Notes: generated from the letters alone by a model not told the origin. A stretch of 64,000 nt of DNA from Xanthobacteraceae bacterium (GCA_045801465.1 JBJMSU010000065.1:1992-65991); one strand, 5' to 3'; positions 40,039 through 56,149 are shown, counted from the stretch's first letter. Numbers and translations are program-made.

Positions 40039-40590
40039 TCAGCCGCGCGCGACATCGGCGAGGCACTGTTCGACGAATGCCGCGAGGTCGCCGCCGGGAA
40101 ACAGAAATCCTCGAATTCCCGCCGCCTGGGCGGCGGCGAGGTCGGTGTCGCGGTCGCCGATGAGGAAACTCCGGGAACGATCGACCGGCCAAGTGCGCAT
40201 GAGATCGGTGAGCATGCCGGGCGCGGGCTTGCGCCAGTCGGACGACCGGCAATAGGCCGGCACCGAACCTTCGGGATGGTAGGGGCAAAAGCGCACGTCG
40301 TCGATGCGGGCGCCGCTCCGTGCGAGCTCGTCGCGCATGAAGGCGTGCAGCGCCTCCACCTGCGCCTCCGTGAACAGGCCGCGCGCGACCCCCGACTGGT
40401 TGGAAATGAGAAACACCAGATAGCCGGCCTCGTTCAGGCGTCGGATCGCGGCGGCGGCGCCGTCGATCCAGCGCAGACGGTCGGGACTGATGACGAAGCC
40501 GTCGTCGTGATTGACCACGCCGTCGCGGTCGAGAAAGGCTGCCGGCTTGAGATTGCCGTCCGCTCGCGCCGCCATGGCGTCAGCTATCAC
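40039..40590 (-). CDS. gmhB: D-glycero-D-manno-heptose 1,7-bisphosphate phosphatase (HAD-IIIA)
   Basis: Motifs are [21 protein letters not shown], and CRKP-like [13 protein letters not shown] and IGDRDTD. Confidence 0.88.
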
Positions 40591-41179
40591 CGGCGCCCGA
40601 TGATCCGAGATCGCGCTCCACCAGCGCGCAGATCGCGTGCGCGGCCGTCATATGGATCTGCTGGATCACGGCGGTCTCGTCGCTGGGCGCCACCAGGCAC
40701 AGGTCGCACAATGCGCGCAGTGGCGTGCCTTGTTGGCCAGTGAAGCCGATCGCGACGAGGCCGCCCTCGCGTGCGGCTTTGAGGGCGGCGAGCACGTTGG
40801 GCGAGCGGCCGGACGTGGAGAGGGCGAGAAGCAGGTCGCCGCGCTGGCCGAGCCCGCGCACCTGACGCTCGAAGACGCACTCGAAACCGTAATCGTTGCC
40901 GATGGCAGTCAGCACCGCCGGATCGGTGAGCGCGACGGCCGGCAACGGGCGCCGCTCGGTCGCGAAGCGCGAAAGCAGCTCGGCGGCGATGTGCTGGGCG
41001 TCCGCCGCGCTGCCGCCGTTGCCGGCGATCAGGACCTTGCCGCCTGCGCGCAGCGCCGCCGCGATGGCGTCGGCAATTGCAAGCGTAGCCGCCAGCAGGT
41101 GGCGGTCGCCGGCCGCCCGGCCGAGCGCCTCGACCGAGCGGGCGAAATAGGCGGCGACGGCGTCCTCGCGTCCGCTCAT
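40580..41179 (-). CDS. gmhA: Phosphoheptose isomerase (SIS domain)
   Basis: Motifs are [26 protein letters not shown] and a conserved IHMTAAH-type C-terminus. It overlaps gmhB by 11 nt. Confidence 0.9.
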
Positions 41180-41244: not shown

Positions 41245-42357
41245 TCAGCGCGCCGCGACCGTTCCGGCGCTCTCCAGCGTGCGGCGCACGGCGTCGAGCA
41301 CCGGCTCGACCGGAATGTCTTCGGTGCGTCGGTGGTCGAGACGCGTGCAGCCCTTGCGGCCACAGCTCGAGCAGACGGCGGAAGTGGGCTCGATGGCGGC
41401 GGCCAGCGGGTTGAGCGGTCCGGTCAGATGCGGGCTGCTCGGACCGAAAATACCCACCGCAGGCGTAGCGAGCGCAGCCGCCACGTGGAGCAGGCCGGAA
41501 TCGTTTGCCACCGCCACATCGGTGGCGGCGAGTGCCAAAATGGCGTCGCGCAGGTCTTCTCCCGTGAGGTCGCGCACGGCCGCGCCGCCAGCATTGGCGA
41601 TGTCGGTTGCCAGGGAGCGATCATCCGGGCTGCCGAGCACCCACACGGCAACTCCGTCCGCCGCCAATGCACGCGCGAGTTCCCCGTAACGTTCGACCGG
41701 CCAGCGCCGCCCCGGTCCCACCGTTGCCGGGCAGAGCGCAACCACCTGGCTTTCGTTGAGCCCGCGGCGCGCCCGCCAGGCGGACACCTCGGCGGCGGGC
41801 ACCACCAGGGTAGGAAGCGGCAGCGAGGCGGGGAGGGCAGTTCGTTTGGGTAAGCTCAATGCCACTTTGCGATCGAGCATGCGTTCGAGCCCGCGCTCGC
41901 CCCAGCGCACGTCGTTGAGGAGAACGAAGCGCCCCTCGCCGGCGAACCCCGTGCGCTCCGGGATCCCGGCGAGAAAGGGCGCGAGCGCAGATTTCCAGGT
42001 CCGCGGCATGACCAGCGCGGAGCCGTAGCCCTCGGCCGTGAGCCGTTGCGCGAGCTCCCATTGCTTGGCCAGCGCCAGCCGCCCGCGCGGAAGCTCGCTG
42101 ACGATCCCCTTGCGCACGCCCGGCATGTAGTCGATGAGCGGCAGGGTGCGCGCAGTCGTGAGCATGTCGACTGGCCGGCGGGGGGAACGGGCGTTGATGA
42201 GCCGCACGGCGGTATGGCAACGGACGAAATCGCCGATCCACATATAGGGAACGATGAGGATCGGCCGTGTGTCGACGTCCGGCGCCGCTTGCGCCGTCGA
42301 CGTCGCAGCAGTTTCGTCCATTGCACCCATCGCTCGCCGGTTAGCCCGCCCGGTCAT
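41245..42357 (-). CDS. ADP-heptose:LPS heptosyltransferase (glycosyltransferase family 9)
   Basis: Motifs are [26 protein letters not shown] and [14 protein letters not shown]. The start is uncertain (ATG at 42357, 42330 or 42321). It is divergent from hldE. Confidence 0.85.
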
Positions 42358-42436
42358 GGATTTCCAGCCCGTCGTATTGCGCCTGCGGCCCGAGTGGGGC
42401 AAAGGAGGCCCAAGATCATGGCTTAGCCGAGGGGCA

Positions 42437-43915
42437 ATGTTCGATTTCGCCAAGCGCCTGTCCGAGCTCGACCAGGCCAGCGTGCTATGCGTCGGCGACC
42501 TCATGCTCGACACGTACGTCTACGGCGAGGTCGAGCGCATTTCGCCTGAGGCGCCGGCGCCGGTGCTCGCGGTGACGCGCGAGGAGCTCGTCATCGGCGG
42601 AGCCGGAAACGTGGCGCGCAACGTCGCCAGCCTCGGCGCACGCTGCATTTTCGTTGGCGTCGTGGGTGATGATGGCGCCGGCAAGACCCTGGAGTCAGCC
42701 TTTGCTCAGCAGACCGATCTGATCGAGTCGCGCCTGGTGGTCGATCAGGCGCGTCCGACCACGCGCAAGACGCGCTTCGTCTCCGAGCACTTCTCGACGC
42801 ATTTGCTGCGCGCCGATTGGGAGCTCGCCCGGCCAGTCGCATCCGACGTCGCAACCGCGGTGATCGCCTACGCGACGAACGCTCTGCCGCGCGTCGGGGC
42901 CGTCGTCCTCTCCGACTACAGCAAAGGGGTGCTGTCGCCGGCGGTGGTGCGCGCCGTGATCGCCGCCACCGCCAGGCTGGGCAAGCCGGTCATCGTCGAT
43001 CCCAAATACGGCGACTACAGCCTCTACAAGGGCACGACGCTGATCACGCCCAATCGCCGCGAGCTCGCGGAAGCGACGCGGATGTCGGCGGCGTCGGATC
43101 AAGAGCTCGCCGCGGCCGCATCGGCGCTCGCCGAGATGGTGCAAAGCCAAGCGGTGCTGGTGACGTTGAGCGAACACGGCATGACGCTCGTCGAGCGCGG
43201 CCGCGCGCCGGTCCATGTGCCCGCCTACGGCGTAAAGGTGCTCGATGTATCGGGCGCCGGCGACACCGTGGTCGCCGCCATGGCGACGTTTCTTGCCGCC
43301 GGTGCCGGCTACGAGGAGGCGATGCGCGCCGCCAATGCGGCGGCCTCGGTGGTGGTGGGCAAGCGCGGCACCGCCACCGTATCGGCGGCAGAGTTGCGCG
43401 CCCGCATCCTTCCCGAGGCCGCGCTCGCGCCCGAGCAGAAGATCGTGCCCGACTGGTCGGCGCTCGATCGGCGGCTCGATGCCTGGCGGCTGGAGGGCCT
43501 GCGCATCGGCTTCACCAACGGCTGCTTCGATCTCGTCCACCCCGGCCATGTCGAACTGTTGGCAAAGGCGCGCGCCCACTGCGACCGGCTGGTGGTCGGC
43601 CTCAACAGCGACGGCTCGGTCCGCCGGCTCAAGGGCGACGGGCGCCCGGTGCAAGCCGCGGCGGCGCGCGCCGAGGTGCTCGCCGCCATGGAGGCGGTCG
43701 ATCTCGTGGTCCTGTTCGATCAGGATACGCCGCTCGAGCTGATCCGCCGCATCCGGCCGAAGGTGCTGGTGAAGGGCGCCGACTATGGATTGGACCAAGT
43801 GGTGGGACGCGAGCTGGTCGAGGCCGACGGTGGCGAGGTCATCCTGGTCGATATCGTGCCGGGACACAGCACGAGCGAAATCGTCGGGCGCTCGCGCCGA
43901 CATGCCAAGGCGTGA
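42437..43915 (+). CDS. hldE: Bifunctional D-beta-D-heptose 7-phosphate kinase / D-beta-D-heptose 1-phosphate adenylyltransferase
   Basis: The N-terminal kinase has [29 protein letters not shown] and DVSGAGDTV. The C-terminal cytidylyltransferase has [15 protein letters not shown]. Confidence 0.92.
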
Positions 43916-43918
43916 GCA

Positions 43919-44650
43919 ATGCCTGCGGGACCGATGAACGCCATCCTTCCCTATGCGGCCGAAAATCGCCTGAAGGAGGAATTCTTCGGCCACTCAGACA
44001 ACGGTTTTTTCGTCGAGGTCGGGGCGAACGATCCCGAGCAATGGTCGCAGTCGTTCCATCTCGAGCGACTGGGCTGGCACGGCATCGTGGTCGAGCCGCA
44101 GCCGCATCTCGCCGAAATGCTGCGCCAGCGACGCACGGCCAAAGTTTACGAAGTGGCCTGCTCGGCTCCCGAGAACGCCGGCGAGCGCATGACGCTGCAC
44201 CTTGCGGGTGGCCATTCGTCATTCGATCCGATGCTCAAGGTCGCCGACGTGCGGCCCGAGGGCAGCTTGGAGGTGCCGCTCAGGACACTCGACGAGATCC
44301 TGGCCGAGACCGAAGCACCGAGCCCGATCGATTTCCTCGCGATCGATGTCGAGGGGCATGAGATGGAGGTGTTGCGCGGCTTCGACTTTGCACGCTGGCG
44401 GCCGCGGCTGATCATGGTCGAAGATCTCGTGCTCGACATGCGGCTGCATCGCTTCATGCAGTCGCAGAGCTACAAGTGGATACGGCGCACTGACGTCAAC
44501 AGCTGGTATGTGCCGTCCGAGTCGCCATTGCGGGTCGGCCTGATCGGGCGATGGCAGTTCTTTCGCAAATATTATCTGGGAACGCCGTTTCGGCGGCTGC
44601 GCGAGACCTTGCGTCGCCTGCGCGCGCGGCTGCGACGCACAGGCGCATGA
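43919..44650 (+). CDS. FkbM-family methyltransferase
   Basis: FFVEVGANDPEQWSQSFHLERLGWHGIVVEP and IDFLAIDVEGHEMEVLRG are typical FkbM strings. It starts 4 nt after the hldE stop. Confidence 0.85.
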   Translation: MPAGPMNAILPYAAENRLKEEFFGHSDNGFFVEVGANDPEQWSQSFHLERLGWHGIVVEPQPHLAEMLRQRRTAKVYEVACSAPENAGERMTLHLAGGHSSFDPMLKVADVRPEGSLEVPLRTLDEILAETEAPSPIDFLAIDVEGHEMEVLRGFDFARWRPRLIMVEDLVLDMRLHRFMQSQSYKWIRRTDVNSWYVPSESPLRVGLIGRWQFFRKYYLGTPFRRLRETLRRLRARLRRTGA

Positions 44651-44655
44651 TGTTG

Positions 44656-45315
44656 TCATCCGGTGCGCCGGACGATCACCTGATAGCCCTTGGCGAGCAA
44701 CCGATAGCGGCCCTCCTGCGCTGCGAGGAAGTCGTCGACCGCCGCCTGCGGCCGTTCGTCCGGGCGAAATTCCGGTGCCCATTCGTAATCGTCCCAGATC
44801 ACGATGCCATCCGGCGCGAGCATCTTCCACACCGACGTCGAGTCGCCCATCACGTCCTCGTAACGGTGGCCACCGTCGATATAAGCGAGGTCGAATTGTC
44901 GGCCCTGCGCGATCAACGAGTCGAGCGCCGGCGCCGAGCGGCTCTTGATCTTCTCGACCCTGTCGGAGAACGGTGCGAGATTGCGGTTGAACCGTGCCTC
45001 GATCCCGGGGAGGTGGTTTTCCAACAGCTTGTAGACATAGCCCTCTTCCGCGGTACCCTCGAACGTATCGATGCAGACGATCGTGGAGCGCGGCAGATAT
45101 TTCAGGAAAAACATCGCCGAGCGGCCCTCGAACGAGCCGATCTCGAGGATCTTCGCCGGCCGGTCGCGCAGCGGGGCGAGCACGCGGCGCCAGATCGAAT
45201 AGTTCTTCCAGATCCAATCGGACGTGAAGTCGCCGCGCCAAAACCATGGGCGATATCGGACTCGATAGAACACTTTGGCGATCGGCGACGGATCCCTGAA
45301 GATGGGATCAGACAT
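44656..45315 (-). CDS. Class I SAM-dependent methyltransferase (Methyltransf_24-like)
   Basis: Start at MSDPIFRD (ATG at 45313-45315). Motifs are ILEIGSFEGRSAMFF and FDLAYIDGGHRYEDV. Confidence 0.8.
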   Translation of the reverse strand: MSDPIFRDPSPIAKVFYRVRYRPWFWRGDFTSDWIWKNYSIWRRVLAPLRDRPAKILEIGSFEGRSAMFFLKYLPRSTIVCIDTFEGTAEEGYVYKLLENHLPGIEARFNRNLAPFSDRVEKIKSRSAPALDSLIAQGRQFDLAYIDGGHRYEDVMGDSTSVWKMLAPDGIVIWDDYEWAPEFRPDERPQAAVDDFLAAQEGRYRLLAKGYQVIVRRTG

Positions 45316-45484
45316 ATGGCGGTCTTTATGCTGCTGCACGGATGTCAACCGAATCCTCGATCTTCAAGTCGCACGTGGCCGGGCGGCACTGTCGGACATG
45401 CTGGCGACGGCACAGGCGCTGCGCTAGCATCCCGTAGACCAGCCAATTGATAGCGGTCAACCGAACATTCCCAACATCGTCGAC

Positions 45485-46333
45485 ATGCTCGCTTCGTTCA
45501 AGCAAACCCGGTCCTACATCACGTTCAAGGAATGGACGAAGGCGCTGCGCCGCCGGGCGAAGCTTTCCTACTATCGCGGGACGCAATATCGCTGTCCCAT
45601 CTGCGACATCCGGCTGCGGGCTTTCAAGCCGATCTGGCGGTCGTTCTGGACCGACTACCAACAGTACGAATTCATCCGTTCGCCCTTCTCCATGGAAACG
45701 TTCAACCCCGGGGCGTTTTCATGCCCGGCCTGCGACGCCTACGACCGCGAGCGGCTGACCGCGCTCTACCTCGACCGCGCTTTCCGCGCGTTCGATCCAA
45801 AGCGGCGCTACCGCCTGGTCGAGTTTGCTCCGGCGCATGCGCTCCACCGCATGATCAAGCGGCATCGGTTGGTCGAATACCGAAGCGCGGACCTGATGCG
45901 CAACGACGTGGACGACCGCGTCGACATCACGAACTGCCCCTATGACGACCGTTCGGTGGACGTGTTCCTGTGCTCGCATGTGCTCGAGCATATCGAGGAC
46001 GATCGTAAGGCCATGCGCGAGCTCCATCGCATCCTGGCGCCGGACGGCTTCGGCGTCGTGCTGGTGCCGCTTTTTCCCGACGTCGACGAAACGCACGAGG
46101 ATGCGCAGATCGCGACTTTGCACCAGCGCTGGAAATATTTCGGCGGCGGCGATCACGTGCGCCAATACGGCAAGCAGGATTTCATGGATCGGCTGGCGGC
46201 GGCTGGATTCAGGGTCGATCAGCTCGACATCAATTATTTCGGCAAGGATGTTTTTCGCGAAGCCGGGATCGCGGAGAATTCCGTCCTTTACGTGCTGCGC
46301 AAGCAGGAGCGGGCGCAGTCAACCCTGCATTAG
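45485..46333 (+). CDS. Class I SAM-dependent methyltransferase with an N-terminal CxxC...CxxC zinc-ribbon-like segment
   Basis: The Cys pairs are CPICDIRLRAF ... CPACDAYDRE. The methyltransferase core is VDVFLCSHVLEHIEDDRKAMRELHRILAPDGFGVV. Confidence 0.8.
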   Translation: MLASFKQTRSYITFKEWTKALRRRAKLSYYRGTQYRCPICDIRLRAFKPIWRSFWTDYQQYEFIRSPFSMETFNPGAFSCPACDAYDRERLTALYLDRAFRAFDPKRRYRLVEFAPAHALHRMIKRHRLVEYRSADLMRNDVDDRVDITNCPYDDRSVDVFLCSHVLEHIEDDRKAMRELHRILAPDGFGVVLVPLFPDVDETHEDAQIATLHQRWKYFGGGDHVRQYGKQDFMDRLAAAGFRVDQLDINYFGKDVFREAGIAENSVLYVLRKQERAQSTLH

Positions 46334-46428
46334 GTTAGATCTCTGATTGCACGCGGGAAGGGGCGTGCGAGAATGACGACCTGAGCGGCGGAGTGGCACC
46401 GGACATAAGGAATGTGATATAGTGGGTC

Positions 46429-46650
46429 ATGGTCAAGACATTGGAAATAGCGATCGCGAAGGCTGCGTCTCTGCCCGAACCGGCGCAGGAACAGCTCGGC
46501 CGCGAGCTGCTGGAGCGCATCGAAACACTGGCGGAGCTGCGGGCCGAGATCGAGATCGGTATCCGGGAGCTAGACGCTGGCCTGGGCGAGGAACTGGATA
46601 TCGAAGACGTTATCCGCCAAGCCCGCGCAGAGCATGCCAGGAAGGCGTAG
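46429..46650 (+). CDS. Type II antitoxin (ParD/'addiction module component'-like)
   Basis: A 73-aa acidic protein with ASLPEPAQEQLGRELLERIE and ELDAGLGEELDIEDV. It overlaps the downstream parE by 17 nt. Confidence 0.7.
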   Translation: MVKTLEIAIAKAASLPEPAQEQLGRELLERIETLAELRAEIEIGIRELDAGLGEELDIEDVIRQARAEHARKA

Positions 46651-46951
46651 GCGAGTCGTCTGGGCTCCGAAGGCCAAGCAGGACCTGCGCGAGGTCTGGC
46701 TCTATTACGCCCGCGTGGCATCGCCTGAAATTGCCGACAAGCTGGTGCGGGAAATTGATGGAGCAGGCGAGCGGCTGGAACAGGATGCATTGATGTGGCG
46801 GGCGCGTGATGAAATCCTGCCTGGCCTGCGTTCTGTCGTGATCCATCCGTACGTCGTTTTCTACAGGTCGACAGACACAAACGTTGAAATCGCCCGCGTT
46901 CTTCACGGGCGGCGGAATTTTGCCGCCATTTTTCGCACGGGCGAGAGTTAG
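46634..46951 (+). CDS. parE: ParE/RelE-family toxin
   Basis: Motifs are VVWAPKAKQDLREVWLYY, YVVFYRSTD and VEIARVLHGRRNF. Confidence 0.82.
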   Translation: MPGRRRRVVWAPKAKQDLREVWLYYARVASPEIADKLVREIDGAGERLEQDALMWRARDEILPGLRSVVIHPYVVFYRSTDTNVEIARVLHGRRNFAAIFRTGES

Positions 46952-47004
46952 GTGGTTTACGAGCAGATCACCAGGCCGTTGCTGCGCGACTTGACAAAGG
47001 AACT

Positions 47005-47157
47005 TCAAATCCGCCGCACGAGACGCTGCCAGCCGTAGAGCAGGAGGGCGGCGAGCGCGAGCGCCGACAGCAACCACAGCGCCGCCAGCCACGGATTCAC
47101 CGGAAAGGCGTCTTTGAGGCCTTGCAATACGATCGAAACCGCCGTCGTGGCGCTCAC
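47005..47157 (-). CDS. Unannotated 50-codon single-pass membrane micro-ORF, translationally coupled to the upstream gene
   Basis: This is my own translation: VSATTAVSIVLQGLKDAFPVNPWLAALWLLSALALAALLLYGWQRLVRRI*. The GTG start (47155-47157) overlaps the TGA stop (47154-47156) of the upstream gene as GTGA. It is below the 60-aa cutoff of the ORF track. Confidence 0.4.
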   Translation of the reverse strand: MSATTAVSIVLQGLKDAFPVNPWLAALWLLSALALAALLLYGWQRLVRRI

Positions 47158-48602
47158 GGCCGCCAATCTCCCAGGAACCGCTTCTTGAAGATCACGCGCA
47201 GCATCCGCAGCGCGGTCTTGCTGATCTTGAAATAGTTATCCGAGTGCTTGGACGTGCCGCTCACGCGCGCGTAATAGCTCACCGGGATCTCGATCACGCG
47301 TCGACGCGCGCGCAGCATCTCGATCATCATTTCCGGAGAGAATTCCGGCCCCACGCCTTGCATGCGATCGCGGATCTTGAGCCAGGCCTCCTTCCACACC
47401 GCGCGGAAGGTGCAGCCGACGTCGGTGAAGCGCGGCTGCTGTCCCCACCACATGACCTCGACCAGCTTGCCGACCAGCACGTTGCCCCAGCGCACGAGCC
47501 CGCGCATGTTGGTGCCCTGCTCGATGAGCTCGCGGGTTGTCCGGGTGCCGATCACCATGTCGGCGTCCTTGAGGTATTCGAGCAGCTTGTCGAGGTCCTT
47601 GGCGTGGAACGAATGGTCGGCTTCGGCGACGATGAGGATGTCGCCCACGGCATGGTCCAGGCCATATTTGATGCTGTCGCCGTATCCTTTCAGCGCCACG
47701 GTCTCGACGCGGGCGCCGTGCTGGCGAGCGACCTCTTCGGTGCGGTCGCGTGAGGAGTTGTTGACGATGAGCACTTCGTGCACGTGCGGCAGGAAATCGT
47801 CGATCGCATAGCCGATCGATTCCTCCTCGTTGTAGGCCGGCACCACCAGGCTCAATTTGTACTGACCGAACTTCAGCTTGCGACCGGCATAATTGGCGTC
47901 GTTGTAATCCTCGATCGAATTGACGTTGAAATACTGGCCCTGCACGTGCAGCGCGGTGACGCGCTCGCCGCCGTCGATCGCGTTCATGAGCGCATCCGTC
48001 AGCTCGATCTTTCCTGAGCGCGCCGACGGCGCCGTCTTGCCAATCCAGTCCGCCATGCGCGGATGGAACACGTAGGTGCCGACGCCGAGCACCTGGTCAT
48101 GGGTCGAGGACGGCTTCTCTTCCACCCGGGCGACGCGGTCATCGACGATTTTGACGCCGTAGTTCTTCAGGATCTGCCGCTTGTTGCGGGTGTGATGAAC
48201 ACCGCATGCCGCAACTGCCGAGCCGAGATCGAGCCCGGCAAAGTCGGCGTGGTTGGATTCGAGGTAGAGCTCGTCGCCGAGGATCGTCACGAACGGAGCG
48301 GCGATCCGGTCCATGGCAAGGAGGAGGCCGCGCGCCAGGCCGATCGTCGGATCGGGGCAACGCAGGAATGTCAGATCGACGCCCAGCGCCTCGCCCGATC
48401 CGAGCGCGGCGCGGACCTGGTCCTCCAGATAGCCGACGATGATGGTGATGTCGCGTATGCCAAGCTGATCGCGCATGATCTCGATGTTGCGCACGATCAG
48501 CGGCTTGCCGGCGATTTCGAGCAGGACCTTGGGGATGCGCTTGGTGGCCGGATAAGCACGAATGCCCTGACCTGCGGCGGGGATCACACCGTGAAACGCC
48601 AT
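47154..48602 (-). CDS. Fusion protein: sugar-phosphate nucleotidyltransferase (N-terminal) plus family 2 glycosyltransferase of the polyprenyl-phosphate sugar synthase type (C-terminal)
   Basis: Start at MAFHGVIPAAGQGIRAYP (ATG at 48600-48602), a G-x-G-x-R nucleotidyltransferase motif, with KVLLEIAGKPLI. The GT2 part starts near aa 248 (nt 47861): LSLVVPAYNEEESI, and IVAEADHS as the DxD-like motif. Confidence 0.82.
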   Translation of the reverse strand: MAFHGVIPAAGQGIRAYPATKRIPKVLLEIAGKPLIVRNIEIMRDQLGIRDITIIVGYLEDQVRAALGSGEALGVDLTFLRCPDPTIGLARGLLLAMDRIAAPFVTILGDELYLESNHADFAGLDLGSAVAACGVHHTRNKRQILKNYGVKIVDDRVARVEEKPSSTHDQVLGVGTYVFHPRMADWIGKTAPSARSGKIELTDALMNAIDGGERVTALHVQGQYFNVNSIEDYNDANYAGRKLKFGQYKLSLVVPAYNEEESIGYAIDDFLPHVHEVLIVNNSSRDRTEEVARQHGARVETVALKGYGDSIKYGLDHAVGDILIVAEADHSFHAKDLDKLLEYLKDADMVIGTRTTRELIEQGTNMRGLVRWGNVLVGKLVEVMWWGQQPRFTDVGCTFRAVWKEAWLKIRDRMQGVGPEFSPEMMIEMLRARRRVIEIPVSYYARVSGTSKHSDNYFKISKTALRMLRVIFKKRFLGDWRP

Positions 48603-48642
48603 GGAGGAAACGCCGGTCAACTGTCACACAGATGCCGAGCGC

Positions 48643-50280
48643 TTACGTCTTCGGCGGACAGAACGGGAAACGCTCGACGAGTCTAATATGGCGGGGAAGC
48701 CAGGAGCAAGTGCTCTCCGGTCCGGCCCGGCGCAGGCCCTGCTTGATCGGCTCGAACTGGCCGAACACCGCATTGATTGTGAGGAGAAGCGCGCCCAGCG
48801 GGAAAGCCAGGCGGTGCGATGCCGGGGCGGAAAAATTCGCCAACAGCCAGCAGGCGGCGATGACGACCAGCGGGTCGGCGTAGATGGCGTACTCGATGTG
48901 CAGATCGCGCAGCGTTCCGACAGCGTCCAGCCCCCAGGCTGCGGCCAGGAGAATGCCCACCTGCCCGACGAGCAGGCGCTCGCCGCGCCGCCACGCCATC
49001 ACCATTCCGGCGCACACGAGCCATTGCAGGAAGACCGTCGCCCGCGTCGAGAAATGAAGCACGAAAGTGAAACGGGCGAACACGTCGGCGATGCCGAAGA
49101 CCACTGACTGAAAGAGCCGCGAGCTGAACACGCCATCGCCCGTTGCGAGCTGCGGGTCGGAGAACGAAGCCCACGCCATCATGTGCTCGATCGGATTGAC
49201 GACGGAGAGCACGTTCTGCGGATGGTAGCGGATGTCGAGAGCGAGCAATCCGGCGCACACGCCGATGAACGCGGCAAGCAGCGTTGCGATGGTTTCCAAA
49301 GGGGGAACGCGCCAGATCGCCGCGAAGGCCAGGATCGCCGCTACCACCCATGCGGCGACCATCGCCTGGTAGAGGCCGACGATACCGAATGGCGGCGGCG
49401 GAAAGGGAAAGAGCGATGTCGGCCGCTCGACAAGCCCGAGACGGATCAGGTCGGCGGCGGGGATCGCGGTGAGCAGCGCGGCGGCCGCGAGCAGCGCAAT
49501 CGGCACGATGGCGCGCCGCGGCGAATGCCAGGAGGAACCGGCGTTGTCGCCGCGCACGCCGAAGAACATCGCGACCACGGTCCAGGCGAGCGCGAGCAGG
49601 ATGGCCTGCACCTTGTTGACGACGCCGAGCGTGCACAGCATGACGGCGATGCCGACGACAGCCGGGCGCCAGCGCCAATCGGGCGAACGCGCCGCCTCGA
49701 GCAACAGCAGCAATCCAGCGAACTCGAGGCCGGCGGCGAGCAGGTCCGTGCGGATGACCCGGGCGTGCCACATGACCGCGCTGGAGAGGGCGAGCATGAG
49801 GATGCCGAGCGCGGCAATGCGCCAGTCGGCAACCAGACGCCGCAGCAGGGCCGCGAATACGCCGACGAAGCAGAGAACGAGCACGAGCGACAGGAGCCTT
49901 CCTGCCCGAACGGCGGCGGTCCACACCAGCTCGAAATTCACGCTGTCGGCGGCAGGAGGAATGTCCGAGAGCGCGATCACCTTGAGGGCGCCGATGCCGT
50001 GCAGAAGCCGGAACCAAACGTCGGTGAGCAACACATTGAGATGTCCGGGATGATCGAAGAAATCCTGCGGCCGCCCGTCGTTGAGCAGAAACCCCTGATA
50101 CACCATCATGAAGTCCATATCGGCGCGGCGCCAATACGGATACCAGTAGCCGAACAGGAAAAACGAGACGACGATTGCCGCCATCGCGGCCACGATCGTG
50201 CCGGTCCAGCCGAACACGAGCACGCCGAAAAGCCCTTGGCGCGATCGGGTCTTCCGGATTGTCTCGATGTGGGCGTGCAT
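48643..50280 (-). CDS. Large polytopic membrane protein, possible GT-C-fold glycosyltransferase
   Basis: The 545-aa ORF has many hydrophobic segments. The first loop has acidic residues (DMDFMMVYQGFLLNDGRPQDFFDHPGH). It is the first gene of the operon with the nucleotidyltransferase-GT2 fusion. The fold assignment is inference. Confidence 0.6.
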   Translation of the reverse strand: MHAHIETIRKTRSRQGLFGVLVFGWTGTIVAAMAAIVVSFFLFGYWYPYWRRADMDFMMVYQGFLLNDGRPQDFFDHPGHLNVLLTDVWFRLLHGIGALKVIALSDIPPAADSVNFELVWTAAVRAGRLLSLVLVLCFVGVFAALLRRLVADWRIAALGILMLALSSAVMWHARVIRTDLLAAGLEFAGLLLLLEAARSPDWRWRPAVVGIAVMLCTLGVVNKVQAILLALAWTVVAMFFGVRGDNAGSSWHSPRRAIVPIALLAAAALLTAIPAADLIRLGLVERPTSLFPFPPPPFGIVGLYQAMVAAWVVAAILAFAAIWRVPPLETIATLLAAFIGVCAGLLALDIRYHPQNVLSVVNPIEHMMAWASFSDPQLATGDGVFSSRLFQSVVFGIADVFARFTFVLHFSTRATVFLQWLVCAGMVMAWRRGERLLVGQVGILLAAAWGLDAVGTLRDLHIEYAIYADPLVVIAACWLLANFSAPASHRLAFPLGALLLTINAVFGQFEPIKQGLRRAGPESTCSWLPRHIRLVERFPFCPPKT

Positions 50281-50384: not shown

Positions 50385-51413
50385 ATGAGCACCGGCACGC
50401 CGACCAGCGGGCCCATTCTCGTCACCGGCGCTGCCGGCTTCATCGGATTCCATGTCGCGCGTCGGCTGCTGCAGGACGGACGCAGCGTCGTCGGCGTCGA
50501 TAACATCAGCGCCTATTACGATCCCGCCTTGAAGCAGGCCCGGCTCGCCGAGCTCGCCCCGTTTCCGGAGTTCCGTTTCGAGAAGCTCGATCTGGCCGAG
50601 CGAGACAGCACCGCGTCGCTGTTCGGCGATCACCGCTTTCCCTATGTGGTGCATCTCGCCGCACAACCGGGCGTGCGCTATTCGCTGATCGACCCGCATG
50701 CCTATGCGGACGCCAACCTCATCGGCTTTCTCAACGTGCTCGAAGGCTGCCGCCACGGCGGCTGCCGTCATCTCGTCTATGCCTCGTCCTCCTCGGTCTA
50801 CGGCGCCAATACCAAAGTGCCGTTCCGCACGTCGGACAATGTCGATCATCCGGTGAGCCTCTACGGGGCGACCAAGAAGGCCAACGAGGCAATGGCGCAT
50901 GCCTATGCTCACCTTTATGGATTGCCGGTCACGGGCCTGCGTTTTTTCACCGTGTACGGGCCGTGGGGCAGACCCGACATGGCGCCATGGCTGTTCACGC
51001 AGGCGATCAGCGAGGGTCGGCCGATCCGCCTGTTCAATCACGGGAAGATGCGACGCGACTTCACCTATATTGACGACATTGTCGAAGCGGTCGTCCGTCT
51101 GATCGAGCGCCCGCCGGCCGGCGATCCGGCCTGGTCGGGTGAAGCGTCCGATCCAGCGAGCAGCGCGGCGCCCTGGCGCCTCTACAACATCGGCAACAAC
51201 CGGCCGGTCGAACTCGATCACTTCGTGCGCGCGTTGGAAGCGGCGGTCGGCAAGCCTGCCGTGCGCGAGCTCGTGCCGATGCAGCCGGGCGACGTGATCG
51301 AAACCTATGCGGACGTCGCCGACCTGCAGGCGGCGGTCGGATTCCGGCCCGACACGCCCATCGAGGATGGTTTGCGCCGCTTCGTCGACTGGTACGTGAA
51401 CTATAAGAAGTGA
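50385..51413 (+). CDS. NAD-dependent UDP-glucuronate 4-epimerase (SDR, extended)
   Basis: ILVTGAAGFIGFHVARRLL, YYDPALKQARL, SSSSVYG, YGATKKANE and RFFTVYGPWGRPDMA are characteristic of the UDP-GlcA 4-epimerase subfamily. Confidence 0.85.
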   Translation: MSTGTPTSGPILVTGAAGFIGFHVARRLLQDGRSVVGVDNISAYYDPALKQARLAELAPFPEFRFEKLDLAERDSTASLFGDHRFPYVVHLAAQPGVRYSLIDPHAYADANLIGFLNVLEGCRHGGCRHLVYASSSSVYGANTKVPFRTSDNVDHPVSLYGATKKANEAMAHAYAHLYGLPVTGLRFFTVYGPWGRPDMAPWLFTQAISEGRPIRLFNHGKMRRDFTYIDDIVEAVVRLIERPPAGDPAWSGEASDPASSAAPWRLYNIGNNRPVELDHFVRALEAAVGKPAVRELVPMQPGDVIETYADVADLQAAVGFRPDTPIEDGLRRFVDWYVNYKK

Positions 51414-51423
51414 GGACGCCACT

Positions 51424-53253
51424 CTACATCCGAACCCGCCGCTTGCCCGTCACCATGCGGGCCATCAATGTGCCGTCGCTGTTGCGGCTGAGCGATGCCT
51501 CCATTTCGACGCCATCGTCATCGGCGTTCCAGTGGTGGATGCGATAGATCAGGGTGTCGTCGGGGTCGCTGTTGGCGAAATAGAATACGTCGCGGTGCTG
51601 CGTGCTCAAGTCGCGTGCAAAAGCCGGACCAGCGAAACGCATGGCGCAAACATCATTGATGATCGGATAGGCGGCGAAATAGAGCAGGCCAACGCCGTTG
51701 ATGTCGTGCGGCGGAATGATGTCATACTGGCACTCGAATATCGGCGGTGCCTGCTCGCGGGCGCGGCGGGCGCGGTACTCGTGAGCGAATTCCGGCAAAT
51801 CGGCATGATCGGGAATTGCGCAGCCGACCGGTATCTCGGGCTGACCTTTGAGCAGCGACGTGTTGGCGCCCGCCTCGCCGTACTTGGAGAAGCTCGACAT
51901 CACCCGCACCAGCGCCGACCGGCCATCGCCCCGCACGCCCGCATCGCTGAAGAACATCATGGCGCCATAACGCGAGCCTTTGGCGGCGACGGTAATAGTC
52001 TCGTTCTCCACATAGGCCGCAAGCGGCGCGGTCGAGCTCAGCTGGACGCGCGTGAAAGTGGCGTAAAGGCGGTTTCCGCCGGCGTCGGTCAGTCGGCTCG
52101 ACGGCTGGCCGAGCGCGCGGGTGATCAGGCTCCAATGGATATCGCCAACCTCCTTGAGCAACCAGGATTCCGAAAGCCCGCCGAGCGCCATTTGCGGCAT
52201 GTTCAGATCGTACACGCGTTGCTCGCTGGCGGGCGCGGTCGAAACGGCGCGGGCGCCCGGTGGCCTGGATCGACCCCGGGCACGATACGGACTAGGTTCC
52301 TCAAGGAATGAAATTTGCTCGACGCCGGCTGCGGCGCCGCGCTCTGTGCCGGCCAGGATGCGCACGACATCGCCAGGCGTGATCACCGAGCTCCACGACT
52401 CGTCGTCGATGACCGTGGCGAACGATTGTTCGATTCTGGTGCGCAGCGTCAGCATGGCGAAGCTGTCCACGGCGAGCCGGGCGAATGGCGTATCGAGATC
52501 GTCTTGGGAAAATGCCGGAAGCTCGGTCCGGATCAGCTCGATCAGCTGCGCGCCGAGCGCGCCTTCTACAAGGTCGGGCGTGCCGCTACGCTTGTTTGCG
52601 GCGACGGCTTCTTCGCTCGCCTGCGGAAGACCTTTGATTTCGCGGCAAGCCGCGACGAATCCCGAGATGTCGTCGCTTTGCAGCAATGGACGCAGCTGCC
52701 GAACCTGCGTGGCGTCGAGCTCCCACCAGCGCAGCTCCAGCAAGGTCGCGATGGCTTTGTCGGGAAAGCGCTTGCGCACGACACGGGCAGGATTGCCTAA
52801 CACGACGGCGTAGGGAGGAACATCGTCGATCACCACCGCGCCTGCACCGACGATGGCGCCGTCGCCGACCGTGACGCCCGACACAATCGTGGCGTTCGCC
52901 GCAATCCACACGTCCGAGCCGACGACGATGTCCCCCCGGGAAGTAGGAAGCTCGTCACGGGTTAGCGCGCCGAAAGCCAACCCAAGCGGGAACGTCGTGA
53001 CCGCGTCGGTGCGGTGATGTCCGCCGAGGATGAACGTCGCCCCCGCCGCAATACTGCAATACCGGCCAACCTTCAGGCGCGCGGAATCACCGAAGGTCCT
53101 GACCGCCGGTGCGCCAATCGAATAGTCGCCGATCTCGAAACCGTGGCGCGCCACATGATAGGCAAGCGTCCGCCGCAACTGATGACAGCGGGGAACTGAT
53201 CTCGCATGCCATCGCACACGCTGCCGCTTCCAGAACTCCGACAAGGTCGACAT
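51424..53253 (-). CDS. Tri-domain protein: hexapeptide-repeat (XAT/CatB-like) O-acyltransferase, then a carrier-protein (PP-binding) domain, then a double hot-dog (LnmK/thioesterase-like) domain
   Basis: Start at MSTLSEFWK (ATG at 53251-53253). The hexapeptide region is VGSDVWIAANATIVSGVTVGDGAIVGAGAVVIDDVP, followed by the XAT tail LLELRWWELD. The carrier motif is ARLAVDSFAMLTLR, with the Ser codon at 52462-52464. The C-terminal ~265 aa contain two hot-dog-like halves (LSESWLLKEVGDIHW... and PPHDINGVGLLYFAAYPIIND). Confidence 0.8.
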   Translation of the reverse strand: MSTLSEFWKRQRVRWHARSVPRCHQLRRTLAYHVARHGFEIGDYSIGAPAVRTFGDSARLKVGRYCSIAAGATFILGGHHRTDAVTTFPLGLAFGALTRDELPTSRGDIVVGSDVWIAANATIVSGVTVGDGAIVGAGAVVIDDVPPYAVVLGNPARVVRKRFPDKAIATLLELRWWELDATQVRQLRPLLQSDDISGFVAACREIKGLPQASEEAVAANKRSGTPDLVEGALGAQLIELIRTELPAFSQDDLDTPFARLAVDSFAMLTLRTRIEQSFATVIDDESWSSVITPGDVVRILAGTERGAAAGVEQISFLEEPSPYRARGRSRPPGARAVSTAPASEQRVYDLNMPQMALGGLSESWLLKEVGDIHWSLITRALGQPSSRLTDAGGNRLYATFTRVQLSSTAPLAAYVENETITVAAKGSRYGAMMFFSDAGVRGDGRSALVRVMSSFSKYGEAGANTSLLKGQPEIPVGCAIPDHADLPEFAHEYRARRAREQAPPIFECQYDIIPPHDINGVGLLYFAAYPIINDVCAMRFAGPAFARDLSTQHRDVFYFANSDPDDTLIYRIHHWNADDDGVEMEASLSRNSDGTLMARMVTGKRRVRM

Positions 53254-53355
53254 GAGGTTACTCGGAGCTCGCGCGCCGGGCCGCATCCAGACGCAGATAT
53301 GACCAATCAATGCGTGCCACGGTCATATTCTATTTCCGCGCGCAATCAATGCACA

Positions 53356-54858
53356 TCAGCCGCAGGAACCGAGTGGACCGATCGGGCCGCGCGGCGTGTC
53401 GAGCTTGAACGCGTAGTAGGTGCGGGCCGACGTCGGGCCGGTCCTGGCGTCGAAAGCGCCGAGCGCTTCGACCTGGGCGAACTGGGCGGCGAGGCGCGTT
53501 GTGGCGGAGCAACGGCTGACGAACAGAAGCGGCCGCGGCGTCGTGTCGGAAAGCGCGCGCGTGAGCTCGAATTGGTGCGCCGCAGTCGCTCCAATCGGCC
53601 ACGCCATGACGGCCTCCGGCTGATCGCGCCAATAATAGAGAAGGGAAGCGACGTCGTCGCGCTGGTCGCCGACGATGGCGCGGGCGCCGACCTGTTGCGC
53701 CAGCCGGCCGGTCGCTTCTCCCAAGGCGCGCCAGCCGAGCGTGCGGCGGTAAGCATCGCCGAGCACGGGAACGTGGAGCCCGGTTGCTTGCGTGTCCCCG
53801 GCCAGAAACAGCGCCTGCACGAATAAGCCGACGGCCAGACTGAGCGTCAGCCATTTCCAGGCGGCCCTGCGGATCATGATGGCGACCACCACGATCACTC
53901 CGGAAATGAACGCCGTGACCGCCCAGTTGGCGAAGGCGCGGCTGATGATCGCCGTCGCCGTGATGAGAACGAGCGGAGGAATCGCAAAGGCGAGCATCAG
54001 CCGATCGGCGCGAGTGATGAGCGGGGAGGCGATTCTGACCAACGTCGCGAGCAGCACGCCAAAGAGAACCGGACCGAATACCGCGAACTGCGAGGCGATG
54101 AATTCGAGCGCCCGCAGCGGATTGAGCTTCAAGCCGCCGCCCTGGATGTTGTCGCCGGTGTGCTTGAAGGTGGCAAGGCCGTGGGTGAGGTTCCAGTAAA
54201 TGTTCGGGGCGATCACCAGGATGGCGATGCCTAACGCGAGCCACAGCTCGGGCTTGCGCAGGAGCAGGCGGGCATCGCGGTCGAACCAGGCCGCCAATGC
54301 GGCGCCGAGGAGGAAATACGCCATGGCGTATTTGGCAAGCGCGCCCAATCCCAAAGCGATGCCGAGCACGATGGCCCAGCGTCGATCCGCACCGTTGAGG
54401 AGCTTGACGTAAGCAAGCAGGGCGAGCGCCCAGAAGAAGAGCAGCGGAACATCGGTCGAGATGATGCGCGCGGAGAACACCACGCCGGGCGTGAGCGCGG
54501 TCGCAAGCGCGGCGAAAAACGCGACGGTCTCGTCGTACAGCTGTCGCGCGATGGCGAAGACAAGCAAGCTGGTGCCGAAATAGAGGATGGGCGCCGGAGC
54601 GCGAATGCAGGCTTCCGAGCTGCCGCACAGCGTCTCGGCGCCGGCGATGAGCCAGGCGAGCAGGGGCGGCTTGGTGAAGTAGCCGAATGCGAGCTCGCGC
54701 GACCAGGCCCAATATTGGGCTTCGTCGAAGAAGAGATCGACCACCGAGAATTTCAGCCCGATCAGCCGAATGACCGTCAGTAAGGTAAGCAGCGCCACGG
54801 CGAGGCCGAAGCTTGGAATTGCCTGCGACCGGATCGTTGCCTGCGACGTCGACGCCAT
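53356..54858 (-). CDS. ArnT/PMT-like GT-C glycosyltransferase (GT39/83 type), polyprenyl-phosphate-sugar dependent
   Basis: Start at MASTSQATIRS (ATG at 54856-54858). LFFDEAQYWAWSRELAFGYFTKPPLLAWLI is the typical first-loop motif. The N-terminal half is polytopic and the C-terminal domain is soluble. Confidence 0.82.
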   Translation of the reverse strand: MASTSQATIRSQAIPSFGLAVALLTLLTVIRLIGLKFSVVDLFFDEAQYWAWSRELAFGYFTKPPLLAWLIAGAETLCGSSEACIRAPAPILYFGTSLLVFAIARQLYDETVAFFAALATALTPGVVFSARIISTDVPLLFFWALALLAYVKLLNGADRRWAIVLGIALGLGALAKYAMAYFLLGAALAAWFDRDARLLLRKPELWLALGIAILVIAPNIYWNLTHGLATFKHTGDNIQGGGLKLNPLRALEFIASQFAVFGPVLFGVLLATLVRIASPLITRADRLMLAFAIPPLVLITATAIISRAFANWAVTAFISGVIVVVAIMIRRAAWKWLTLSLAVGLFVQALFLAGDTQATGLHVPVLGDAYRRTLGWRALGEATGRLAQQVGARAIVGDQRDDVASLLYYWRDQPEAVMAWPIGATAAHQFELTRALSDTTPRPLLFVSRCSATTRLAAQFAQVEALGAFDARTGPTSARTYYAFKLDTPRGPIGPLGSCG

Positions 54859-55150
54859 CGATGATCTTTCCGCGAAGGGCGCGCACATTGGACCGACGCC
54901 GGGAGCGAGACAAGGGCAGATGGGCCGCAGGATGCGGCCGCGGATGGCGCGCGTCCCGCCACTCGATCGATTGCTTTATCGCTGCGCGCCGCGCCGCACA
55001 GGAATGCCACAATCCACCGCCTTTGTGGTGTAAACATTTGATTCGAAACGTGAGTGGGTGATTCGCCGTGACCGGGTCGCCAGCCGCCTCCAGGCATGCT
55101 AGGGGTGGTTGCCGGGCGGTGCGAGGCGTGATGGGGGTAGCTGTCCCGAT

Positions 55151-56149
55151 ATGGTGCAAACCGTGAAAGGCGGCGCGGCAGACGTGCTGCGCGTCGGGGT
55201 GGTCGGCGTCGGTGTCATGGGCAGCAACCATGCGCGCGTCCTTGCCGGGCTCCCCGGAATTCGACTCGTCGGAGTTGCCGATCCGGACCAGCAACAGGCC
55301 CGCTTCGTCGCCGGTGCGCTGGGCACCACCGCCGTCGACGAGGTGGATGCGTTGTTGCCGCTCGGCGTCGACGCCATCACCATCGCGGCGCCGACGCACC
55401 TGCATCACGACATCGCGCTCAGCTGCATCAAGCGCGGCGTCCACGTCCTGGTGGAGAAGCCGATCGCCTCCAATCCCGAGGAGGGGAGGCGCATCGTTGC
55501 CGCTGCACGGCGTGCCGGCGTCACCCTGATGGTCGGCCACGTGGAGCGTTTCAATCCTGCGGTCGAGACGATCAAGGAGGCGATCCGCGGCGAGGAGATC
55601 CTATCGATCGCCATCACCCGCGTCGGTCCATTCCCGCCCCGCATGTCCAATGTGGGCGTGGTGATCGACCTTGCAGTGCACGACATCGACCTCATCCGCT
55701 GGTTCACCGATTCGGAGATCGTGGACGTGCAGCCGCTCACCGCCAATGCGGTCGCCGAGCGCGAGGACATCGCGCTGCTGCAGTTCCGCACGACCTCGGG
55801 TGTGCTGGCGCAGATCAACACGAACTGGCTGACGCCATTCAAGGCGCGCACGGTCCACGTGGCGACGCGCGATAAATACATCATCGGCGATCTGCTGACG
55901 CGGACGGTCACGGAATGTTTCGGCTTCCAGCCGGACGGCAGCTATTCCATGCGCCATCTGTCGGTCGGCTATACCGAGCCGTTGCGCTCCGAGCTCGTCG
56001 CCTTCTTTACGGCCATCCGCTCGGGAAGCGCTGCCGTCGTGAGCGGCGAGGAGGGTGTCGCCAGCCTCGAGATCGCCATGCGCTGCCTGGACGAGCGTCC
56101 GGCGCGGGCGCGGCCGCAGCCCAAGGCAGCACGGCGCGCCGCCGGCTAG
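55151..56149 (+). CDS. Gfo/Idh/MocA-family NAD(P) oxidoreductase (sugar-nucleotide dehydrogenase type)
   Basis: Start at MVQTVKGG (ATG at 55151). The Rossmann motif is LRVGVVGVGVMGSNHARVL, with the EKP motif in VLVEKPIA. Confidence 0.85.
   Translation: MVQTVKGGAADVLRVGVVGVGVMGSNHARVLAGLPGIRLVGVADPDQQQARFVAGALGTTAVDEVDALLPLGVDAITIAAPTHLHHDIALSCIKRGVHVLVEKPIASNPEEGRRIVAAARRAGVTLMVGHVERFNPAVETIKEAIRGEEILSIAITRVGPFPPRMSNVGVVIDLAVHDIDLIRWFTDSEIVDVQPLTANAVAEREDIALLQFRTTSGVLAQINTNWLTPFKARTVHVATRDKYIIGDLLTRTVTECFGFQPDGSYSMRHLSVGYTEPLRSELVAFFTAIRSGSAAVVSGEEGVASLEIAMRCLDERPARARPQPKAARRAAG

Follow-up and report, generated by a model that had tools for sequence, protein, structure and literature searches.

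We analysed a 64,000-nucleotide stretch of DNA from a Xanthobacteraceae bacterium, a soil-dwelling alphaproteobacterium (GCA_045801465.1, JBJMSU010000065.1:1992-65991), referred to here as the window, and within it three open reading frames (ORFs) on the minus strand that we call A, B and C. A encodes a polytopic membrane protein, B a protein in which a sugar-1-phosphate nucleotidyltransferase is joined to a glycosyltransferase (GT) domain of the GT2 type, and C is a micro-ORF (Table 1). That the three form an operon had been claimed in a first-pass annotation, and the ORF listing of the window returned all of them exactly where that annotation had placed them, with the GTG start of C overlapping the TGA stop of B in the sequence GTGA (47154-47157). 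Longer listings that begin at TTG codons also exist (47154..48620 for B and 47005..47166 for C); the ATG start used here for B agrees, in an alignment, with the N-termini of 28 homologues. Near-identical A and B proteins, deposited from metagenome-assembled genomes (MAGs) of Xanthobacteraceae, were found in a protein database search. The G+C content of the window is 62-70%. A promoter scan of the window returned no sites, and terminator-like sites were not more frequent than in shuffled sequence.

Table 1. Features of the operon and of its surroundings (positions counted from the first nucleotide of the window)
Feature	Position	Strand	Description
Gene A	48643..50280	-	545 amino acids, ATG start; polytopic inner-membrane protein, putative GT-C-fold glycosyltransferase of an unannotated family
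Gene B	47154..48602	-	482 amino acids, ATG start at 48602; bifunctional fusion without transmembrane helix
B, N-terminal domain (residues 5-238)	47889..48590	-	RmlA/GalU-like sugar-1-phosphate nucleotidyltransferase
B, C-terminal domain (residues 249-454)	47241..47858	-	GT2 domain of the polyprenyl-phosphate glycosyltransferase type
B, C-terminal amphipathic helix (residues 457-476)	47175..47234	-	KTALRMLRVIFKKRF; helix in the AlphaFold2 model
GGGAGA	47167..47172	-	Shine-Dalgarno-like, 9 nucleotides 5' of the GTG of C, within the 3' end of B; read from the sequence
Gene C (micro-ORF)	47005..47157	-	50 codons, GTG start at 47157; single transmembrane segment
Insertion	46334..47011		about 680 nucleotides, adjoins C, outside the operon; ParD-like/ParE pair at 46429-46650 (+) and 46634-46951 (+)
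GT4	38968-40035		neighbouring gene, domain/family match
GmhB	40039-40590		neighbouring gene, domain/family match
GmhA	40580-41179		neighbouring gene, domain/family match
GT9 heptosyltransferase	41245-42513		neighbouring gene, domain/family match
HldE	42254-43915		neighbouring gene, domain/family match
Three methyltransferases	43919-46333		neighbouring genes
SDR sugar(-nucleotide) epimerase	50385-51413	+	neighbouring gene
ArnT-like PMT_2 protein	53356-54888	-	second GT-C, PMT_2 match E 1.6e-29, 3 kb from A
GnnA-like GFO/IDH/MocA oxidoreductase	55109-56149	+	neighbouring gene
MurJ	56377-57936		neighbouring gene

Judged from its sequence, B is a true fusion of a domain that forms a nucleoside diphosphate (NDP)-sugar and a GT2 domain of the polyprenyl-phosphate-sugar synthase type. 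Pfam assigns residues 5-238 to NTP_transferase (PF00483, E 2.2e-19) and residues 251-358 to Glycos_transf_2 (E 2.4e-19). The N-terminal half also matches the NCBIfam models rmlA_long (4.5e-31) and AglF (1.5e-28) as well as RmlA sequences in the PDB (up to E 4e-16), and in the AlphaFold2 model of B (predicted local distance difference test score, pLDDT, 84.6) this half lies on RmlA with a Foldseek E of 7e-20 and a template modelling score (TM-score) of 0.72-0.87 on the target. G11, G13, R15, K25, D110, E162, K163, P164 and D232 are invariant in a 29-sequence alignment; both the G-x-G-x-R...K signature and the E-K-P sugar-phosphate motif are thus present and invariant. The domain is closest in kind to glucose-1-phosphate thymidylyl- and uridylyltransferases, so that the substrate of B is more likely to be an ordinary hexose than an unusual sugar.

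When the C-terminal half of B was searched alone against PDB sequences, it gave eight distinct matches, which apart from one unnamed GT were all to dolichyl-phosphate mannose synthase (DPMS), ArnC or GtrB: the DPMS of P. furiosus (5mlz, 2.3e-12), three ArnC entries (5e-07) and three of GtrB sll0501 (1.6e-4). The alignments span residues 243-454, from the first strand through E327-A-D329 (D-A-D in the matches) to R446..G449-x-S451-K452, and the two motifs of the domain, E327-A-D329 (the "DXD") and R446-x-x-G-x-S-K, are invariant across the 29 sequences. In NCBIfam the half matches AglJ (1.6e-26), and PpgS is also among the full-length catalytic-domain matches; glucosyl-3-phosphoglycerate synthase is a weaker match (2.3e-10, residues 244-341). 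A C-terminal transmembrane anchor is expected of GT2 enzymes of the DPMS/GtrB/ArnC type, but B lacks one: a hydropathy scan detected no transmembrane helix and no hydrophobic segment in the protein. The slot that the anchor takes in DPMS, ArnC and GtrB is occupied by the amphipathic helix of residues 457-476. This helix, in the model probably a membrane-interface helix, is kept in all 29 aligned sequences, which end at about residue 478 without a transmembrane segment. Its domain composition suggests that B is probably one enzyme that both activates a sugar and loads the lipid carrier for a neighbouring membrane glycosyltransferase.

The distribution of the fusion in sequence databases indicates that it is widespread and not a local accident. 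A search with B returned 1548 database proteins at E<=1e-3, and the best 120 of these 1548 were all two-domain proteins (57-99% identity). In a scan of one genome per species we found 231 fusion loci, in Planctomycetota, Omnitrophota, Acidobacteriota, Binatia, Myxococcota, Nitrospirota, Chloroflexota, alphaproteobacteria and one MAG labelled archaeal; the protein search, but not the species scan, added a member from a cyanobacterium. Across many phyla identity is 50-65%, and in the 29-sequence alignment, which covers many phyla, columns average 67% identity, with no variation at the catalytic residues of either half. The first-pass annotation had read B as a fusion of these two activities; the Pfam and PDB matches bear this out, and the two halves are conserved as one protein in the 231 species-level loci rather than split in all relatives. 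A search of the literature available to us found no description of a nucleotidyltransferase-GT2 fusion.

Genes next to the fusion are often those of GT-C enzymes. As polytopic partners we counted ORFs of at least 380 amino acids with at least 6 hydrophobic segments, by a crude hydropathy measure, that lie within 400 nucleotides of the fusion. Such an ORF was found directly up- or downstream in 35 of 73 loci (30 of the 55 with full flanks), and many overlap the stop or start of the fusion by a few bases. Among 37 partner ORFs, Pfam identified 20 PMT_2, 9 PMT, 3 DUF2142 and 2 GT87 proteins, all from GT-C families, and 2 Acyl_transf_3 proteins; at least 20 of the 37 are GT-C enzymes, and the partners fall in several unrelated-looking families. 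Since GT-C enzymes take lipid-phosphate sugar donors (PMC11127046), the adjacency of the fusion to their genes is independent support for the view that B makes such a donor. Small multi-spanning ORFs (80-170 amino acids, at least 3 hydrophobic segments), possible flippases of the GtrA/SMR type, are rare beside the fusion: only 2 of the 73 loci have one at a distance of up to 2.5 kb.

Some fusion loci have a distinct layout. In the cyanobacterial locus L002, a 97-amino-acid multi-spanning ORF 3' of the fusion (1920-2213) has the look of an SMR-/ArnE-type small transporter and is one of very few flippase candidates beside a fusion. In four loci of Blastocatellia (L034, L037, L039 and L050), two GT-C-like paralogues, about 561 and 527 amino acids long, stand in tandem downstream of the fusion, an arrangement that suggests one donor synthase feeding two transferases. 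Fusions of about 49-51% identity were also found in contigs labelled as an Aenigmatarchaeota MAG (L071) and as Klebsiella and Enterobacteriaceae MAGs (L076, L080), and these may reflect either horizontal transfer or binning or labelling errors. A possible homology of A to the 515-amino-acid protein beside the fusion in L001 (Planctomycetota) was rejected, none being detectable.

A has about 13 hydrophobic segments by hydropathy, above the at least 8 transmembrane helices expected of a GT-C enzyme. It has no Pfam and no NCBIfam match, and its 370 homologues, mostly from MAGs of Xanthobacteraceae or Rhizobiales, are all unnamed or "hypothetical". An acidic motif of the GT-C type (D/E-x-D/E) is present in the loop after the first transmembrane helix (residues 25-43): D54 and D56, within a W-R-x-A-D-M-D motif directly after that helix, are invariant in a 46-sequence alignment, as are several Arg residues. 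The basic N-terminus suggests that this loop is periplasmic. The AlphaFold2 model of A is an all-helical bundle (pLDDT 90.9, predicted TM-score 0.92). Compared with the PDB by Foldseek, the sole matches at a probability of 0.9-1.0 were GT-C enzymes, with weak E-values and TM-scores: ArnT (5ezm, E 1.9e-3), Pmt4 of C. thermophilum (TM-score 0.43/0.47), STT3, ALG12 (0.41/0.46), DPY19, AftB and Pmt1/2. Transporters and pyrophosphatases followed at a probability of at most 0.23. Membership of A in a described GT-C family (PMT_2, PMT, GT87 or DUF2142) was considered and rejected, as sequence methods gave no link. Because the Foldseek scores are weak and no sequence link to a named GT-C family was found, we call A GT-C-like only; the reading that its model favours is a divergent enzyme of the GT-C fold outside every described GT-C family. 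The GT-C character attributed to A in the first-pass annotation is thus favoured, at weak scores, by the structural comparison, in which the high-probability matches were all GT-C enzymes, and finds no echo at the level of sequence families.

The pairing of A with B is not confined to the window. Five other types of alphaproteobacterial locus (L084, L164-L172, L096, L009 and L004) also have A 5' of B, and across phyla the fusion abuts recognisable GT-C genes. L084 and L164-L172 are about 99% identical. The other loci are diverged: A and B are 58% and 76% identical in L096, 59% and 78% in L009, and about 46-63% and 65% in L004, where A is frameshifted in the MAG. A gap of about 40-60 nucleotides between the two genes persists in the diverged alphaproteobacterial loci. 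Elsewhere, a plain DPMS-like GT2 gene lies near the A homologue in about 14 of 80 other A-family loci. Since A homologues occur with plain GT2 genes and the fusion occurs with varied GT-C families, A-type enzymes appear to draw donors from different synthases and the fusion to serve different GT-C enzymes, so that the parts would be modular. Genomic linkage to B and, in the family, to plain DPMS-like GT2 genes would fit a polyprenyl-phosphate-linked sugar as the donor of A.

C was taken in the first-pass annotation for an unannotated ORF. This is not so, as several MAGs of Xanthobacteraceae already carry its 50-residue GTG form and 49-residue variants under the label "hypothetical protein". 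It has no Pfam and no NCBIfam match. The doubt whether the frame is coding at all can be set aside: it is open in 11 of 11 related (population) sequences, with no frameshifts or stops, 11 of the 15 polymorphic sites among these sequences fall at codon position 3 (binomial p = 0.0018), and comparison with the L084 allele gives synonymous and nonsynonymous rates of 0.30 (dS) and 0.035 (dN), a dN/dS of 0.12. By this substitution pattern, C is a real gene under purifying selection. Its product has one transmembrane helix and a basic C-terminal tail of about 7 residues; by the positive-inside rule, the 22-residue N-terminus would be periplasmic and the short basic tail cytoplasmic.

An exhaustive HMMER search of 1.8 billion representatives returned 11 more distant homologues of C (43-61 amino acids, 47-67% identity, E 2e-10 to 1e-3), and the family shares the motif V-N-P-W-L-A-A-L-W ... 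L-V-Y-G-W-Q-R-L. No C was found 3' of B in L096, L009 or L004, where B is 65-78% identical, and a hidden Markov model of the C family had no match in any of 160 loci of the fusion or the A family (80 of them fusion loci) that lie outside the lineage of the window. In 5 of 8 other loci examined, the C homologue lies between hisA and hisF, twice overlapping the hisA stop, and in the other 3 of the 8 it stands beside homologues of the window methyltransferase genes with no fusion upstream. C-family members thus occur without the fusion and without an A homologue. As far as these contexts tell, the family is one of uncharacterised small membrane proteins not tied to A or B, and the translational coupling of C to B is a trait of this lineage only. 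Because C is absent from the relatives of B and its homologues lie mostly between hisA and hisF, a dedicated role as small subunit or flippase accessory, put forward in the first-pass annotation by comparison with ArnE/F, is unlikely; C moreover has one transmembrane segment against the four of ArnE/F.

The his-operon slot is filled by C homologues in L177 (5692-5841), L178 and L179 (6001-6153), L180 (1135-1302), L181 (293-439) and L182 (1247-1378), with the hisA stop overlapped in L177 and L182; the hosts are related soil bacteria. Three further ideas about C were rejected. A DPM3-like anchor for B, which has no transmembrane helix, does not agree with the distribution and predicted topology of C. 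Since many fusions overlap a downstream GT-C start by 4 nucleotides, C might have been the N-terminal remnant of such a gene, lost here, but it belongs to an independent family of full-length proteins of 43-61 amino acids. Finally, a tblastx extension hinted at a relic of B 5' of the C homologue in L173, where the DNA alignment showed no homology upstream of the start codon.

With moderate confidence, we propose that A and B together are a two-gene cassette for periplasmic glycosylation, set into a lipopolysaccharide (LPS) core/lipid A locus. The proposal rests on the domain identities of B, the conservation of the catalytic motifs, the predicted fold of A and the linkage of fusion and GT-C genes. 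The N-terminal domain of B would convert a hexose-1-phosphate, most likely glucose-1-phosphate, and deoxythymidine or uridine triphosphate to an NDP-hexose, which might be channelled between the two active sites. The GT2 domain, which for want of a transmembrane anchor would cling to the cytoplasmic side of the inner membrane by amphipathic helices, would then transfer the sugar to undecaprenyl (polyprenyl) phosphate. The lipid-linked sugar would be flipped by a component encoded outside the cassette, and A, through its D54-x-D56 loop on the periplasmic side, would hand it on to a glycan of the envelope. The probable target is LPS core, lipid A or O-antigen; the gene context makes LPS the likely acceptor. 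C would be a gene of its own for a small membrane protein, its coupling to B being confined to this lineage.

Several observations weigh against this proposal. The GT-C assignment of A rests on weak Foldseek scores (best E 1.9e-3, TM-scores 0.24-0.47); a profile of A found no match among PDB sequences at E<=10, a permissive Pfam scan of 46 A members had only one of them touching PMT (E 0.0021), and hhalign of A against the PMT_2 protein of the window and the PMT_2 neighbour in L013 gave probabilities below 4%. About half of the 73 fusion loci have no adjacent polytopic ORF by the crude hydropathy criterion. In most loci of the A family (40-60% identity), no fusion lies closer than 4 kb, which indicates that A is not generally dependent on B. 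Lastly, no flippase gene of the GtrA, SMR or MATE type was found in the window, where a scan for ORFs of 80-170 amino acids with at least 3 hydrophobic segments returned none, or near most fusions. A bolder form of the proposal would do without one: the fusion would be a self-sufficient route from sugar-1-phosphate to polyprenyl-phosphate-sugar that, lacking transmembrane helices, docks on the GT-C protein, and the pair would couple synthesis, translocation and transfer. This would explain the 50-65% identity across phyla, the frequent stop/start overlap with GT-C genes and the near absence of flippase genes from the cassette, but we consider it unlikely.

It is possible, though not probable, that the GT2 domain of B glycosylates some other acceptor, such as a small molecule, a lipid or a nascent glycan, at the cytoplasmic face, and that A is not a glycosyltransferase but a transporter or a polymerase/ligase-like or acyltransferase-like protein. 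The missing sequence-level GT-C membership of A, the lack of transmembrane helices in B, the glucosyl-3-phosphoglycerate synthase match and the two Acyl_transf_3 neighbours would fit such an arrangement. It is hard to reconcile with the full-length catalytic alignments of B to DPMS, ArnC, GtrB, AglJ and PpgS, which include the C-terminal G-x-SK motif, or with the adjacent membrane ORFs, of which at least 20 of 37 are recognisable GT-C enzymes, a class defined by its use of lipid-phosphate sugar donors; moreover, Foldseek puts GT-C enzymes (probability 0.98-1.0), and not transporters, on top for A. It is hardly credible that the nucleotidyltransferase half of B has lost catalysis and now serves regulation or substrate binding. 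Degenerate domains of this kind exist, for example GalF, which is among the weak NCBIfam matches of B, but nothing specific speaks for one here, and G-x-G-x-R...K, D110, E162-K163-P164 and D232 are invariant across phyla in a fold that matches active RmlA enzymes.

A and B could also be neighbours that work independently, A being fed by another synthase and B supplying further GT-C enzymes, for instance the ArnT-like protein (53356-54888). The scarcity of fusions near A homologues, the presence of this second GT-C gene 3 kb away and the pairing of the fusion with several different GT-C families elsewhere are all in line with independence; the order of A and B and their short spacing are nonetheless kept where A is only about 46-63% and B 65-78% identical, and we regard such independence as improbable. 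Quite improbable, too, is a three-protein machine in which C is a dedicated subunit, either a DPM3-like anchor for B or an ArnE/F-like flippase accessory. The GTGA overlap and the Shine-Dalgarno-like motif imply that C is co-translated with B, C is under purifying selection, B has no anchor of its own, the window offers no other flippase candidate, and in many eukaryotes the small DPM3 anchors DPM1, which has no transmembrane segment (PMC7728079). Yet C does not follow B in L096, L009 or L004, nor in any of the 80 fusion loci of other lineages, its relatives occur without the fusion or A (in 5 of 8 loci between hisA and hisF and in 3 of 8 by methyltransferase genes), and a single-spanning protein with a cytoplasmic tail of perhaps 7 residues would offer B a small surface for docking.

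The two-gene cassette that we favour resembles known systems in its logic. The GtrB/GtrA/Gtr* systems of Shigella and Salmonella and the CsbB/GtcA/YfhO system (PMC11127046) share with it a GT2 polyprenyl-phosphate sugar synthase and a polytopic GT-C-type transferase in one operon, acting on an envelope glycan after export. Here, in contrast, the synthase is fused to its own NDP-sugar-making enzyme and has lost its transmembrane helices, the window has no flippase gene of the three types named, and the transferase lies outside the described GT-C families. ArnC/ArnE-F/ArnT and RgtE/RgtA-D likewise combine an undecaprenyl- (or dodecaprenyl-)phosphate sugar synthase with a GT-C enzyme in an LPS context; ArnC aligns with B over residues 249-454, and an ArnT-like PMT_2 gene and a gene for a UDP-sugar epimerase are neighbours of the cassette. 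In those systems, however, the NDP-sugar comes from separate enzymes, whereas B has the synthesis domain fused; ArnC has two transmembrane helices and B none, ArnE/F have four and C one, and A is not of the PMT_2/ArnT family by sequence. The best solved relative of the GT2 half, the P. furiosus DPMS, has no nucleotidyltransferase domain. Human-type DPM1 resembles B in having no transmembrane segment and needs the small membrane protein DPM3 as its anchor (PMC7728079); in contrast to the DPM1/DPM2/DPM3 complex, no conserved DPM3 equivalent accompanies the fusion. The N-terminal half of B shares fold and catalytic signature with RmlA, GalU and AglF, which are stand-alone or acetyltransferase-fused (GlmU type) and not, like B, GT2-fused. 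By analogy, A-B would be a mechanistically conventional, solid and widespread variation on the logic of Gtr, Arn, Rgt and CsbB-YfhO.

Periplasmic glycosylation by a lipid-phosphate-sugar synthase and a GT-C enzyme is a central bacterial way to remodel LPS, teichoic acids and glycoproteins. If the proposal is correct, the fusion would provide a compact and portable two-gene glycosylation cassette of interest to glycoengineers, better annotation would become possible for thousands of proteins that at present carry no label but "glycosyltransferase" or "dTDP-glucose pyrophosphorylase", and the 545-residue A would found a new GT-C family missed by Pfam and by CAZy-style sequence models. The combination of a synthase without transmembrane anchor and a cassette without flippase gene raises the question of how the donor is made at the membrane and transferred across it. 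The case of C, for its part, is a caution that translational coupling in one lineage is no proof of functional partnership.

The neighbouring genes, among them those for GmhA, GmhB, HldE and a GT9 heptosyltransferase, place the A-B cassette in an LPS core/lipid A locus. Oxidoreductases of the GnnA kind serve 2,3-diamino-glucose lipid A. Together, the epimerase of the short-chain dehydrogenase/reductase (SDR) type, the ArnT-like PMT_2 protein and the GnnA-like oxidoreductase suggest a second, separate lipid A/core modification system beside the cassette. Between the epimerase gene and the ArnT-like gene lies a gene (51424-53310, minus strand) for a three-part protein of 628 amino acids, in which a hexapeptide acyltransferase domain (Vat/CatB-like), a phosphopantetheine-binding, acyl carrier protein-type domain and an LnmK-family acyltransferase/decarboxylase (TIGR04098, E 1.1e-48) are joined; it may add an unusual acyl group to a sugar or to lipid A.

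The insertion next to C, in which the ParE_toxin match has an E of 2.6e-18, is absent from all 10 closely related contigs (L084, L164-L172). In contigs without it, the 3' end of C overlaps the convergent methyltransferase gene by 15 nucleotides, and the junction falls in the last codons of C, changing ...LVQR* to ...LVRRI*. C itself (47015-47095; L084 3340-3420) is about five times as polymorphic as its operon partners: among the 11 sequences, 10.5% of its sites vary, as against about 2% in A and B, and compared with L084 there are 14 differences in about 150 nucleotides of C, 12 in 1638 of A and 8 in 1449 of B. This excess looks like the mark of an imported divergent allele or of a recombination hotspot at the end of the operon.

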